Shown: one piece after another, positions 44,001 through 50,234 of the stretch | How the letters are laid out: the number at the start of each line of letters is the position of its first letter | Numbering within the stretch: position 1 is the first letter of the stretch | Assembly (NCBI RefSeq): GCF_988242995.1 | Contig: NZ_OZ547043.1 | DNA length: 64,000 bases | Reading direction: 5' to 3' (one strand) | Position numbers and translations under genes: made by a program | The notes under the pieces: model-generated | Database searches by the model: none | Seen by the model: the letters and a program-made list of their open reading frames with translations, nothing else | What the model was told of the DNA's origin: nothing

Positions 44001-45290
44001 ATACGGATGCACGACGAGCGGACGCACCACTACCATTACGACAGCCAGCACCGCCTGGTGTTCTACACGCGGATACAGCACGGCGAGCCACAGGTGGAGA
44101 GCCGCTACCTCTATGACCCGCTGGGCCGCCGGACGGGGAAACGGGTGTGGCGGCGGGAGCGTGACCTGACGGGGTGGATGTCGCTGTCGCGTAAACCGGA
44201 GGAGACCTGGTACGGGTGGGACGGTGACAGGCTGACGACGGTACAGACCGGCACCACGCGTATCCAGACGGTATACCAGCCGGGGAGCTTCACGCCGCTC
44301 ATCAGAATCGAAACAGAGAATGGTGAACAGGCGAAGGCGCGGCACCGGAGTCTGGCGGAGGTGTTGCAGGAGGACACGGGGGTGACGCTACCGGCGGAGC
44401 TGTCGGTGATGCTGGGGAGGCTGGAGCGGGAACTGCGCGCGGGTGCGGTGAGTGCGGAGAGTGAGGCATGGCTTCAGCAGTGCGGGCTGACGGCGGAACA
44501 GATGAAAAACCAGATGGAGGCGGAATACATCCCGGAGAGGACACTTCATCTTTACCACTGCGACCACCGGGGGCTGCCGCAGGCGCTCATCAGCCCGGAA
44601 GGGGAAACGGCGTGGCAGGGGGAGTATGACGAGTGGGGAAACCTGCTGGGCGAAACCAGCGCGCAGCAACTGCAACAGCCGTACCGTCTGCCGGGGCAGC
44701 AGTATGATGAGGAGTCGGGGCTGTACTATAACCGCAACCGGTACTATGACCCGTTGCAGGGGCGGTATATCACCCAGGATCCCATTGGGCTAAGAGGTGC
44801 ATGGAACCTGTATCAGTATCCATTGAATCCAACTACTAAGATAGATCCGTTGGGTCTCTCCGGAGAAGATTCCATAGAGCAGTCAGGTCCATCTTGGTTG
44901 ATTGCTGACCCCATGGATAAATACAGACAACAGGCAGTGATGGGTTTAACAAAATTGTGGGATGATACCTTTAGTCAAGAGAAGACTAAATGTTTACCTA
45001 CGACACCTGAAAACATCAGGATGGTTGTGGCCAACAGTCCCTTGTTGACAGTACAACAAAAAGTCTCAGTACCCGTAGTAGCTCACTACGTACAAATGCT
45101 GGAAGATGGTAGTGGAGCACCACCGGTTGATATGGATGGGAATGTGATTGTTAATGGTAATCACAGGATGGTTGCGGGTCTGTTATGTGATAAACTTCCT
45201 CCTGAGCGGCCAGGTACGCGTCCATTATCGGCACCACTATATCCGTTTAGCCAAATTTTTCCGGAGTTAGATGATTGGGGGAATAGATGA
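41079..45290 (+). CDS. Rhs-family polymorphic toxin, full length (PAAR-like N-terminus, YD-repeat shell, DPxGL boundary, variable C-terminal toxin tip)
   Basis: 1403 aa; N-terminus [12 protein letters not shown]...GVACSVCPN; many YD repeats; conserved core end ...[33 protein letters not shown] (ends 44858); GC-rich core, AT-rich tip after 44858. Confidence 0.95.
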
Positions 45291-45772
45291 TAAGAATCGC
45301 GTTTTTAATAACCAATAAATTTCTTGATATAGATAGTACCACTCTTGCTGGATATGATTTTAGCGGGATGGATCTACATCGTGCCATCCTCAATGGTTAT
45401 TGTCTTGATGGGGCGAAATTTGAAAATTCCCATTTAAGAAATGTAATGATTCAACATACATCAACTAGAAATGCTGTCTTTCGCAATGCGGCTCTGATGA
45501 ACGCTATTCTTAATAACTCAGATTTCACTGGAAGTGACTTTAGTAATTCAAGGTCAATAGGTGCAAACTTTGAGGGTGCTATATTAACTAATTCAACCTT
45601 TTGCAATGCAGACGTTAAAGATTCAAATTTTTCTGGTGCTGACTTATGTGGCGCTAATTTATTATGTGATAGATATGGCGATATAAATATAACAGGTGCA
45701 TTATTCGATAAAAACACCTCATGGTTAGAAGGTTTTGATCCTATAGCTCATGGGGCTATATTAAAAATATGA
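45287..45772 (+). CDS. pentapeptide-repeat protein, putative cognate immunity protein of the Rhs C-terminal toxin
   Basis: 161 aa; start overlaps rhs stop (ATGA); consecutive A(D/N)(L/F)xx pentapeptides ([40 protein letters not shown]...); AT-rich like the toxin tip. Confidence 0.8.
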
Positions 45773-46064
45773 CAAGGATCATAACTCATTATTTTCTGTG
45801 TCAGTAACACTGATGTGGAAAGTAGACTTACTTGCAATAGCCACCGGGATCTGCTGTTGAAAGCCGATCCCAAACAACCCCGGTTGCTGTGGTAAAGAGT
45901 CATAGTAGCGAGCGCAGGGGGAGTGCTCAGATTATATGAGATACAGTGAAATGAATAAACCCGAACCTGTGTTGACGTGTCGTTAGTCCTAAGCGGCATC
46001 AGAACCGGAGGTTTCGTGATACCGCCGTGATAAATTTACGGGTGAATTCCGAATGCTACGTAAA

Positions 46065-47520
46065 GGGTGTCCGGCGTATAGCAGACATCAGGATAAAAGT
46101 ATGAAAGCCCACGCCCCACAAGGCTTTACCGGATGATGAGTTTTTAAACTACGACATTACTTTTACAGTAAAATCCATCATGTTGGTATTTTCTCTCGAA
46201 CAATTTGACGATCCACGGAAAGATCACGTAACGCTGCTTTTTTGTACTAGACAATTCGCATTTTATGTTTAACAATTGAGATATTCCTCATTACCTGAAG
46301 CTGTTTTTTATTGCGTATACATGATCAAATACTCCTTACATAATTAAGGAGAACAAAATGGAACTTAAAAAATTGATGGAACATATTTCTATTATCCCCG
46401 ATTACAGACAAGCCTGGAAAGTGGAACATAAATTTTCGGATATTCTACTGTTGACTATTTGTGCCGTTATTTCGGGTGCAGAAGGCTGGGAAGATATAGA
46501 GGATTTTGGGGAAACACATCTCGATTTTTTGAAGCAATATGGTGATTTTGATAATGGTATTCCTGTTCACGATACCATTGCCAGAGTTGTATCCTGTATC
46601 AGTCCTGCAAAATTTCACGAGTGCTTTATTAACTGGATGCGTGACTGCCATTCTTCAGATGATAAAGACGTCATCGCAATTGATGGAAAAACACTCCGGC
46701 ATTCTTATGACAAGAGTCGCCGCAAGGGAGCGATTCATGTCATTAGTGCGTTCTCAACAATGCACAGTCTGGTTATCGGACAGATCAGGACGGATGAGAA
46801 ATCCAATGAGATTACAGCTATTCCAGAACTTCTTAACATGCTGGATATTAAAGGAAAAATCATCACAACTGATGCGATGGGTTGCCAGAAAGATATTGCA
46901 GAGAAGATACAAAAACAGGGCGGTGATTATTTATTCGCTGTAAAAGGAAACCAGGGGCGGCTAAATAAAGCCTTCGAGGAAAAATTTCCGCTGAAAGAAT
47001 TAAATAATCCAGAGCATGACAGTTACGCAATTAGTGAAAAGAGTCACGGCAGAGAAGAAATCCGTCTTCACATTGTTTGCGATGTCCCTGATGAACTTAT
47101 TGATTTCACGTTTGAATGGAAAGGTCTGAAGAAATTATGCGTGGCAGTCTCCTTTCGGTCAATAATAGCAGAACAAAAGAAAGAGCCAGAAATGACGGTC
47201 AGATATTATATCAGTTCTGCTGATTTAACCGCAGAGAAGTTCGCCACAGCAATCCGAAACCACTGGCACGTGGAGAATAAGCTGCACTGGCGTCTGGACG
47301 TGGTAATGAATGAAGACGACTGCAAAATAAGAAGAGGAAATGCAGCAGAATTATTTTCAGGGATACGGCACATGGCTATTAATATTTTAACGAATGATAA
47401 GATATTTAAGGCAGGGTTAAGACGTAAGATGCGAAAAGCAGCCATGGACAGAAACTACCTGGCGTCAGTCCTTGCTGGGTGCGGGCTTTCGTAATCTTGC
47501 CCTGCGCCAAAGATTCCATA
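46065..47520 (+). mobile_element. H-repeat (ISAs1-family) element, copy 2 (ends approximate)
   Basis: conserved upstream block homologous to copy 1; intact transposase ORF. Confidence 0.6.
46358..47494 (+). CDS. ydcC: H-repeat-associated (ISAs1-family) transposase, intact (YdcC-like)
   Basis: 378 aa; [52 protein letters not shown]...; clearly related to but diverged from the copy at 39521..40657. Confidence 0.85.
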
Positions 47521-47539
47521 TAATAATATTAAGGTTGTT

Positions 47540-48175
47540 ATGAATAAAGGTAATAGATTACAACAGTTAGAAGATGCGTGTCGTGATATTATTAAAATTA
47601 ACATGTGGTATGAACTCCCCGATTATGTATTTTTTTCAATATCTGACACCATCGATGGGACGAGTGATGAATTTGCAATAAATGTGTATAAAAATATCGA
47701 TAAAAGTCTTCTTGAAATATTATTGCATCCATCTGTTTTACTGTCAGTTGTTGAGTCCTTACAAAGTAATACTATAGCTGAGTATATCGTGAAATTGTCT
47801 GGAATAGAGATGAATTATGACGACTTGCTAATATCGGATGTTAAGTCATGTCTTTTTATCAACTATGGATTCAATAACAGTGAATCGGTTGCGCTATTTA
47901 ATAAGATTTGCCGCGAATTAAAAGACATTGTAAAATCATCAAGAGTACATATAGATCATGAGAAAGATATTTTTGATGGCCTTAATCAAATCTTGGCTTT
48001 TTCCGATAATAATAAACGTGAGTATTTTTTATATATAAAGGCATATTGGCTCAGTTTATACTTTTGTGAAATTTCACAGAACGTGAGAGAAAGAGATAAG
48101 TTGTCATTTTATTATAATGAATTTTCTGTCCGATTTCCTAATGTTGTCCTATATCCGTCATGCTACAAATTGTAA
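47540..48175 (+). CDS. hypothetical protein (211 aa), AT-rich, no TM segments
   Basis: ORF track; AAGG 7 nt upstream of ATG; very low GC; no recognisable family. Confidence 0.5.
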   Translation: MNKGNRLQQLEDACRDIIKINMWYELPDYVFFSISDTIDGTSDEFAINVYKNIDKSLLEILLHPSVLLSVVESLQSNTIAEYIVKLSGIEMNYDDLLISDVKSCLFINYGFNNSESVALFNKICRELKDIVKSSRVHIDHEKDIFDGLNQILAFSDNNKREYFLYIKAYWLSLYFCEISQNVRERDKLSFYYNEFSVRFPNVVLYPSCYKL

Positions 48176-48566
48176 GGCTTGGCACCTGAAATTCATTGTT
48201 AATTCGAGACGCTTGATTGTCCACTATATCAAAACAGTCATACCTCGGAATTTCTCACATTAGTCCATACGGTATTCAATTTTCGCAACTGTGCCCTGAA
48301 ATAAAAAACTGCAAAACTGCTTTTTCTTGACCTGTCCCAATCACGCAAGACTACTTTTAGTAGAGACCTCCAGCCATATCGATTTTAGTGCCGCCCGCGC
48401 ATTTTATACAAAACAGGGCTTTATCAATGAAGCTATAATACGCAATTACTATGATGTTGGTGAGGATAAATTAATCTTCACTAAAAATATGCAATCGTGA
48501 GATAAAATATGCTTTTAACTCATATTGAAACATTGCTTACGCAACTTCGTTGCTGCATATGATTCT

Positions 48567-49136
48567 TTAGCCAGCGGTAATACGCTTGCCGCTGGTAACA
48601 AACGTGCCAGCACCTAAATGATGCAACGTATTGAGTTTGTCATCATCAAACTGCCAGCGGCCTTCGACAAATACTCGTGCGTCTGCCGCTGCTGATACTA
48701 CCTCGCCAAACAGTGTGTCGTATTTTTCTTGCGCAGAAGTCGCAGGTAGCAGGCGACACTCCATCCACGCCAGACATTTTTCCTCGACCAGCGGCAAACC
48801 AAGCACCGGGCCTCTCACTACCGGAATGCCGTAGCAATTAAATTTATCTTCTTCACGCCCCGACACACTTCCCACCGCCCACGTCCAGTTAGTTGCTGCA
48901 ACACCCGGGATAACGATGCCAAACTTACCATTACGTTCAATCAACTCCCTGGTCCATGTCGATTTATCTACCACAATCGCCACGCGTGGCGGTTCAAACT
49001 CCACCGGCATTGACCAGGCTGCTGCCATAATGTTACGCCGCTGGGATTGCTCATCGAAACTGGTGATCATGACAGTTGGGCCATGATTTAACAGACGGCT
49101 GGCATGGTGTAATTCGACGGGAATGAATTGGCTCAC
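48567..49136 (-). CDS. yddH: flavin reductase-like (FMN-binding split-barrel) protein YddH
   Basis: 189 aa; recognised as YddH. Confidence 0.85.
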   Translation of the reverse strand: MSQFIPVELHHASRLLNHGPTVMITSFDEQSQRRNIMAAAWSMPVEFEPPRVAIVVDKSTWTRELIERNGKFGIVIPGVAATNWTWAVGSVSGREEDKFNCYGIPVVRGPVLGLPLVEEKCLAWMECRLLPATSAQEKYDTLFGEVVSAAADARVFVEGRWQFDDDKLNTLHHLGAGTFVTSGKRITAG

Positions 49137-49310
49137 GATATCGCCTCGCTATGAAGGGTGTTTTAAAAGCGTAGCTCGTAACGCAATAAGTAACGAAATT
49201 AACGGGATTGGCGATTTGCGAACGTGATGCATGTCCGCGATCGCACAAAATAGCCGGTGCAGCGTCTATTCCAGGTTATAAGTTGAGAAAACCACTAAGG
49301 GAAACGCCTG

Positions 49311-50156
49311 ATGACGCCCATTCTGAATCACTATTTTGCCCGTATTAACTGGTTGGGAGCTGCTGCGGCCAATATTGATACGCTGCGTGCATTGCACCTG
49401 AAACACAATTGCACCATTCCATTTGAAAACCTCGACGTTTTGCTGCCAAGGGAAATACAGCTTGATGATCAATCGCTGGAAGAGAAACTGGTGACAGCCC
49501 GTCGTGGCGGTTACTGTTTTGAGCAGAATGGCGTGTTTGAGCGGGTGTTACGCGAGCTGGGGTTTAACGTTCGCAGCTTGTTAGGGCGCGTAGTGTTATC
49601 AAATCCGCCAGCATTACCGCCGCGCACCCATCGTTTGTTGTTGGTGGAACTGGAAGGGGAAAAATGGATTGCTGATGTCGGTTTCGGTGGACAGACGCTA
49701 ACCGCGCCGATTCGTTTAGTTCCCGATCTCGTGCAGATCACGCCACACGGAGAGTATCGGTTGTTACAGGAGGGTGATGATTGGGTGTTGCAGTTTAATC
49801 ATCATCAGCACTGGCAGTCGATGTACCGTTTTGATCTCTGCGAGCAGCAACAAAGCGATTATGTAATGGGCAATTTCTGGTCGGCGCACTGGCCGCAGTC
49901 GCATTTTCGCCATCATTTGCTGATGTGCCGCCATTTGCCGGACGGCGGCAAGCTGACACTGACCAATTTTCATTTTACCCATTATGAAAATGGGCACGCG
50001 GTGGAGCAGCGAAATCTACCAGATGTGGCGTCGTTATATGCCGTGATGCAGGAACAGTTTGGTCTGGGCGTGGATGATGTGAAACATGGCTTTACTGTGG
50101 ATGAGTTAGCGCTGGTGATGGCGGCGTTTGATACGCACCCGGAGGCGGGAAAATAA
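49311..50156 (+). CDS. nhoA: arylamine N-acetyltransferase / N-hydroxyarylamine O-acetyltransferase
   Basis: 281 aa; NAT catalytic Cys in RRGGYCFEQN. Confidence 0.95.
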   Translation: MTPILNHYFARINWLGAAAANIDTLRALHLKHNCTIPFENLDVLLPREIQLDDQSLEEKLVTARRGGYCFEQNGVFERVLRELGFNVRSLLGRVVLSNPPALPPRTHRLLLVELEGEKWIADVGFGGQTLTAPIRLVPDLVQITPHGEYRLLQEGDDWVLQFNHHQHWQSMYRFDLCEQQQSDYVMGNFWSAHWPQSHFRHHLLMCRHLPDGGKLTLTNFHFTHYENGHAVEQRNLPDVASLYAVMQEQFGLGVDDVKHGFTVDELALVMAAFDTHPEAGK

Positions 50157-50169
50157 TTTATGTCAGGTT

Positions 50170-50234
50170 GCCGGATGCGGCGTAAACGCCTTATCCGGCA
50201 TACATAGACCTGATAAGCGAAGCGCATCAGGCAA
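50170..50234. repeat. REP/BIME element (two inverted REP units)
   Basis: GCCGGATGCGGCGTAAACGCCTTATCCGGC followed by ...CCTGATAAGCGAAGCGCATCAGGCA between nhoA and yddE. Confidence 0.7.

Follow-up and report, generated by a model that had tools for sequence, protein, structure and literature searches.

The interval between a 211-aa hypothetical ORF and yddH in a 64-kb stretch of DNA (the whole of which is referred to here as the window) almost certainly holds the inert 3' remnant of a pseudogene, derived from a GNAT family N-acetyltransferase gene and left behind when one deletion of 466 bp, blunt at its junction, took away the rest. Under this explanation, the ancestral locus would have carried a stand-alone gene for a 155-aa GNAT protein where the RhsE/ISAs1 island ends on the right, in convergent orientation to yddH. 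The deletion would have taken 157 nt upstream of this gene together with its ribosome-binding site, ATG start and codons 1-103, and the residual codons 104-155 with the stop codon would have been fused to an unrelated upstream flank that happens to be open for 14 codons. The remnant represents the ordinary decay of a gene from an already annotated family, and no new mechanism or system is implied by the window sequence. Its recognition corrects the annotation of one interval, which RefSeq leaves blank, and provides a small example of how an accessory GNAT gene has been lost repeatedly and independently where the hypervariable RhsE/ISAs1 island borders yddH. A literature search on rhsE together with yddH yielded a single genome announcement, which is not relevant here.

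The genes of this part of the window follow in the order yncE, ansP, an ORF at the yncG position, a split ISAs1 transposase, a 1403-aa Rhs protein, a 161-aa pentapeptide-repeat ORF, a 378-aa ISAs1 transposase, the 211-aa ORF, the GNAT remnant, yddH, nhoA and yddE, with ansP, yddH and yddE on the minus strand (Table 1). The remnant forms the right-hand (yddH) edge of the RhsE-equivalent/ISAs1 variable island, and the 378-aa ISAs1 transposase marks the mobile, rearranging part of this island. The conserved right-hand boundary is yddH, at the stop codon of which homology to K-12 resumes exactly (48567; L005:7283 in K-12).

Table 1. Features of the remnant and its surroundings (window coordinates).
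Feature	Position	Strand	Evidence or remark
ORF at the yncG position, 137 aa	38510-38923	+	GST N-terminal domains alone
Split ISAs1 transposase, first part, 92 aa	39521-39799	+	3' of the yncG-position ORF
Split ISAs1 transposase, second part, 285 aa	39800-40657	+	3' of the yncG-position ORF
Rhs protein, full-length, 1403 aa	41079-45290	+	DUF6531, nine RHS repeats, RHS core
Pentapeptide-repeat ORF, 161 aa	45287-45772	+	4-nt overlap with the Rhs gene
ISAs1-family (H-repeat, ydcC-like) transposase	46358..47494	+	Pfam DDE_Tnp_1_assoc, DDE_Tnp_1; RefSeq orthologues
Promoter-like site	47497-47524	+	TTGCCC, 16 nt, TATAAT; 10/12 matches; 5' of the 211-aa ORF
211-aa hypothetical ORF	47540..48175	+	ORF list; directly upstream of the remnant's flank, same strand as the remnant
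Flank 3' of the 211-aa ORF, non-GNAT	48176..48341	+	in-frame TGA at 48297-48299, then 14 codons open by chance
Deletion scar	48338..48345	+	junction 48341 (T of CAAT) / 48342 (C of CAC)
GNAT N-acetyltransferase 3' remnant, codons 104-155 and TGA	48342..48500	+	tblastn; DNA alignment to 6EVA and UTI89; family alignment
Spacer between the convergent GNAT and yddH stop codons	48501..48566		kept in all GNAT-type alleles; alignments
yddH, flavin reductase family	48567..49136	-	Pfam Flavin_Reduct, E = 1.4e-21; RefSeq orthologous loci; alignment

The original prediction described an open frame without a start codon that ends in a stop, and the plus strand does read in this way: positions 48300-48497 translate as NKKLQNCFFLTCPNHARLLLVETSSHIDFSAARAFYTKQGFINEAIIRNYYDVGEDKLIFTKNMQS and are followed by TGA at 48498-48500, and the in-frame TGA that had been pointed out lies directly 5' of the open frame. 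The first in-frame ATG encodes the Met of NMQS, four codons before the stop, and the sole mechanical start of this frame in the six-frame ORF list for 47700-49100 is TTG at 48327, in agreement with the claim that no Met-initiated ORF covers the fragment. When the intact 155-aa E. coli GNAT protein was compared with the whole 64-kb window by tblastn, a single match was obtained at 48345-48497, with 49 of 51 residues identical (96%, E = 2e-29) and spanning only residues 105-155; the second-ranked match had E = 1.1. The fragment had been taken for a truncated GNAT C-terminus, and it corresponds indeed to residues 104-155 of a gene that is intact at the matching position elsewhere. Its proposed extent, 48300-48500, is right for the open frame but too long for the homology, as GNAT-derived DNA begins at 48342. 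The translation of the preceding codons 48300-48341, NKKLQNCFFLTCPN, has no counterpart in the GNAT family alignment, and the whole of 48176..48341 aligns with 6EVA sequence upstream of the GNAT promoter region; the 14 codons in question belong to the flank 3' of the 211-aa ORF and are open by chance.

The retained segment comprises the C-terminal motif B region of GNAT proteins (an A-x-x-F-Y-x-K-x-G-F helix, then the last beta strands). The predicted A-x-x-FY-x-K-x-GF pattern is present as ARAFYTKQGF, with R122, F124, Y125, G129 and F130 invariant in an 11-sequence alignment of the family. Motif A, the acetyl-CoA pyrophosphate-binding loop (Q/R-x-x-G-x-G/A), was not found in the window, and of a complete GNAT ORF with a start codon and the N-terminal substrate-binding strands and helices there are residues 104-155 only. 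Neither the N-terminal part of the protein (tblastn of the full protein) nor the deleted 466 bp (blastn) occurs elsewhere in the 64-kb window, so the missing part was lost rather than moved.

The start codon, the ribosome-binding site, the loop that binds the cofactor and two thirds of the fold are all missing, and the remnant most likely does nothing and would give no functional product; acetyl-CoA-dependent activity in particular is not expected, because motif A is missing. Continued expression of the remnant, whether by read-through or as a 57-aa protein that starts at TTG 48327, together with a residual function (for example that of a GNAT C-terminal subdomain which binds a partner or interferes with it), is very improbable. 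The frame is open across 66 codons and does contain this TTG, yet the sequence before it, ctgctttttcTTG, includes nothing resembling a Shine-Dalgarno element, and a consensus scan of the plus strand between 48176 and 48330 detected no sigma-70-like site. Read-through transcription from the 211-aa ORF is possible, since the DNA between this ORF and the remnant contains no terminator-like sites; a product made in this way would be devoid of motif A and of the whole N-terminal sheet. The residues of the remnant fit the family consensus (e.g. A121, and His 104 as in other genera), whereas its alleles differ non-synonymously from each other (HID versus YVD) with no constraint visible, the intact gene has been knocked out repeatedly in E. 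coli, and no RefSeq feature is annotated at the remnant.

The description of the fragment as promoterless holds insofar as the ATG has been deleted along with the ribosome-binding site and 157 nt of native upstream sequence, but less so in that a simple consensus scan finds no plus-strand promoter before the intact GNAT gene either. The best promoter-like site of the region lies 5' of the 211-aa ORF, where similarity to strains lacking this ISAs1 copy starts (about 47505); it may represent a putative hybrid promoter at the ISAs1 edge that drives the 211-aa ORF and reads into the remnant. Within 47400-49300, no Rfam matches at E <= 1 and no terminator-like sites were found, and the predicted fold of the spacer region (48490-48580) is no better than that of shuffled sequences (z-scores -0.4 and -0.5).

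Inert decay after one deletion, the preferred explanation, is supported by the alignment with the orthologous E. coli interval that had been proposed as a check, in which strain 6EVA has the intact GNAT gene, colinear flanks and, opposite one clean gap in the window, 466 bp (L001:4833-5298) that are absent here. The left flank ends at L001:4832 of 6EVA and the sequence resumes at L001:5299; the missing DNA consists of the 157 nt 5' of the ATG and the first 309 nt of the coding sequence, and its loss takes the ribosome-binding site, the ATG, codons 1-103 and motif A (QRQGVG, residues 84-89). In a three-way DNA alignment of the window, 6EVA and strain CFSAN061770 the flanks are colinear, with the same single clean gap in the window and CFSAN061770. 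When 47500-48570 was compared by megablast with 5426 complete E. coli genomes, one match was informative, that to 6EVA, where the interval is 456 bp longer overall than in the window. There is no microhomology at the junction (with a slash for the breakpoint, the left flank reads CAAT/GAAG, the gene TTAAA/CAGG and the window CAAT/CACG). An alternative placement of the junction at a repeated TC-CAAT was rejected, as it needs an additional 4-bp loss. Set against this explanation, the window departs from 6EVA at the two bases closest to the junction (CAC versus CAG, GCA versus GCT), so that the ancestral sequence at the break is uncertain in detail.

The junction is not private to the window. The string ...cctgtcccaat/cacgcaagactac... 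is identical in the complete genomes of CFSAN061770, S1-SRL-01-C, M7424 and WP7-S17-ESBL-01, and a junction-spanning 120-mer is covered by at least 80% in 220 of the 5426 complete E. coli genomes, which looks like the trace of a single ancestral event. The closest junction match, at 100% over 120 nt, is found in strain 18KM2445. The islands upstream of the shared junction differ, with vgrG and an M35 peptidase gene in CFSAN061770, an Rhs pseudogene in S1-SRL-01-C and no Rhs gene in 18KM2445, which points to one old deletion that would have been followed by ISAs1-driven reshuffling upstream. We infer a single origin of the deletion, with later spread through descent and recombination. For about 4% of sequenced E. 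coli, the common 466-bp junction could be used as a simple marker of lineage.

In the same set of complete genomes, any trace of the GNAT gene is present in 660/5426 and a full-length GNAT locus in 433/5426. The annotation reads GNAT in 17 of the best 30 matching records listed, among them the type of strain 2012C-4502, in which the gene is shortened by K127stop. A large group of strains carries the UTI89/Nissle allele, with W72stop (TGG to TGA) and a 1-bp deletion near codon 98; this pseudogene, annotated as a 71-aa hypothetical protein (WP_000470661.1), is the homologous gene at the homologous locus and is likewise inactivated, but it keeps its full length and is point-lesioned, whereas the window allele was broken by the 466-bp deletion, so that the two are independent events. 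The independent knock-outs in UTI89 and 2012C-4502 show that E. coli can do without the gene.

The intact parent is the 155-aa "GNAT family N-acetyltransferase" WP_000470660.1, encoded at the corresponding position in 6EVA and convergent with yddH; strains with this protein include 6EVA, LHM10-1 and MB53, and the gene is intact in a few E. coli strains. The retained part of the window belongs to the same orthologue group, given 96% amino acid identity and colinearity with 6EVA on both flanks. Position, flanks, stop codon and the spacer to yddH are as in the window, which lacks the 157 nt upstream, the start, codons 1-103 and motif A and therefore has a remnant and no gene. Homologues of about 155 aa are found in Salmonella, Enterobacillus, Enterobacter (on a plasmid), Phytobacter, Kluyvera, Citrobacter, Serratia, Yokenella, Aeromonas and Uliginosibacterium; their alignment with the parent covers the full length, with 41-77% identity across at least eight other genera. 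The conservation of this architecture across genera implies that the long form is ancestral and that the window form arose by deletion. The converse polarity, with an ancestral short form and 466 bp of inserted DNA in 6EVA and similar strains, might be suggested by the preponderance of deletion-type alleles (220 genomes) over intact ones (about 17 annotated as GNAT among the best 30 records listed), but with the 466 bp the ORF reaches 155 aa and aligns over its whole length with the proteins of these other genera and with PDB 2R7H, a match that no insertion could produce, and UTI89-type strains keep the full-length locus with point lesions; this polarity is extremely unlikely and, judging from the alignments, effectively refuted.

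The fragment alone, as 66 or as 52 aa, matches no Pfam family at E <= 1 or even at E <= 10, and the profile search that had been named as the refuting test thus gives nothing for the fragment itself; the family was for this reason assigned via the intact orthologue, which passes the Pfam gathering scores of three GNAT models, namely Acetyltransf_7 (PF13508; 39.7 bits versus 27), Acetyltransf_1 (PF00583; 33.5 versus 20.7) and Acetyltransf_10 (PF13673; 26.7 versus 23.6). The window sequence accordingly derives from a GNAT member, while being itself no scorable member. The lack of a Pfam match might suggest that AT-rich intergenic DNA happens to resemble the tail of a GNAT here; this reading is refuted, since a tblastn E value of 2e-29, 96% identity to an annotated GNAT and flanks that are syntenic on both sides leave such a coincidence a negligible probability.

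The parent is a GNAT of the RimI-like type, and among solved structures PDB 2R7H is its closest relative (E = 1.4e-14, residues 2-150). This structure, named by its depositors "putative D-alanine N-acetyltransferase of GNAT family", is a distant relative with a putative function; its similarity to the parent includes the C-terminal segment retained in the window, which keeps the last third only. The best named NCBIfam model for the parent is RimI, the S18-alanine N-acetyltransferase (TIGR01575; PDB 5ISV, 2CNM), with which it shares the GNAT core, and homologues of the parent are named "RimI-like" in several sources; its scores are, however, far under the cutoffs (37.4 bits versus 86.4 for TIGR01575, 26.7 versus 173 for NF007025), and it is no RimI equivalog.

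No neighbour gene that could hint at a function is common to E. coli and seven loci in other genera. At the homologue loci of other genera the DNA similarity ends at the ORF borders, and neither the 211-aa ORF nor the small ORFs of 6EVA have homologues at the seven loci. The parent GNAT gene is a stand-alone cassette of variable regions. In Phytobacter (L011:66-2666) and Citrobacter (L014:1532-4152) its homologue follows a CdiA-CT tRNase, a small ORF (a putative immunity gene) and a DUF6572 gene, and in Salmonella (L009:1-3727) it is located downstream of an array of small ORFs without assigned function in an island with a P4-type integrase; its contexts in Yokenella, Enterobacillus and Serratia are unrelated. 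These arrangements give a weak hint of a link between the parent family and polymorphic-toxin islands (Rhs/VgrG in E. coli, CdiA-CT elsewhere). It is conceivable, though improbable, that the family is a roaming cassette at the far end of polymorphic-toxin/orphan-immunity islands and encodes a putative accessory protective enzyme. If this were true, the parent might acetylate an incoming toxin or a toxic metabolite, and E. coli would be losing a protective function repeatedly, with the window representing one of at least three independent knock-outs. A predicted 187-aa protein from metagenome contigs (P0072) combines the ISAs1 DDE_Tnp_1_assoc domain with 46% of the GNAT protein at 69% identity, and is probably a chimeric ORF that resulted from an ISAs1 insertion or deletion beside the GNAT gene in another strain.

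Further observations concern the island around the remnant. In K-12, the slot between the ISAs1 gene ydcC and the 3' end of yddH is occupied by the tautomerase gene pptA, with no trace of GNAT; its sequence is unrelated to the window, with which similarity begins only at the yddH stop codon. In K-12 pptA and yddH overlap by 4 nt, while the GNAT allele has a 66-nt spacer instead; neither the window nor the GNAT-type loci contain pptA, and the two genes were never found together at the loci examined. The 211-aa ORF matches no Pfam or NCBIfam family, and its RefSeq orthologues are annotated as "hypothetical protein", or as "aminopeptidase" in two of the records listed. A frameshift reduces it to 165 aa in 6EVA, where the GNAT gene is intact, and an ISAs1 element interrupts it in S1-SRL-01-C. 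None of the complete E. coli genomes covers at least 80% of 45200-50200, and in the best E. coli matches to this segment the stretch from 45200 to about 46210 (~1 kb) is unmatched.

At the position of the Rhs gene, which together with the overlapping pentapeptide-repeat ORF looks like a toxin and immunity gene pair, K-12 has an rhsE pseudogene only. The ORF at the yncG position is to be compared with a K-12 yncG of 618 bp, and its reduction to GST N-terminal domains, along with the split ISAs1 transposase that follows it, suggests that an insertion element caused a disruption here, at the island's left edge.
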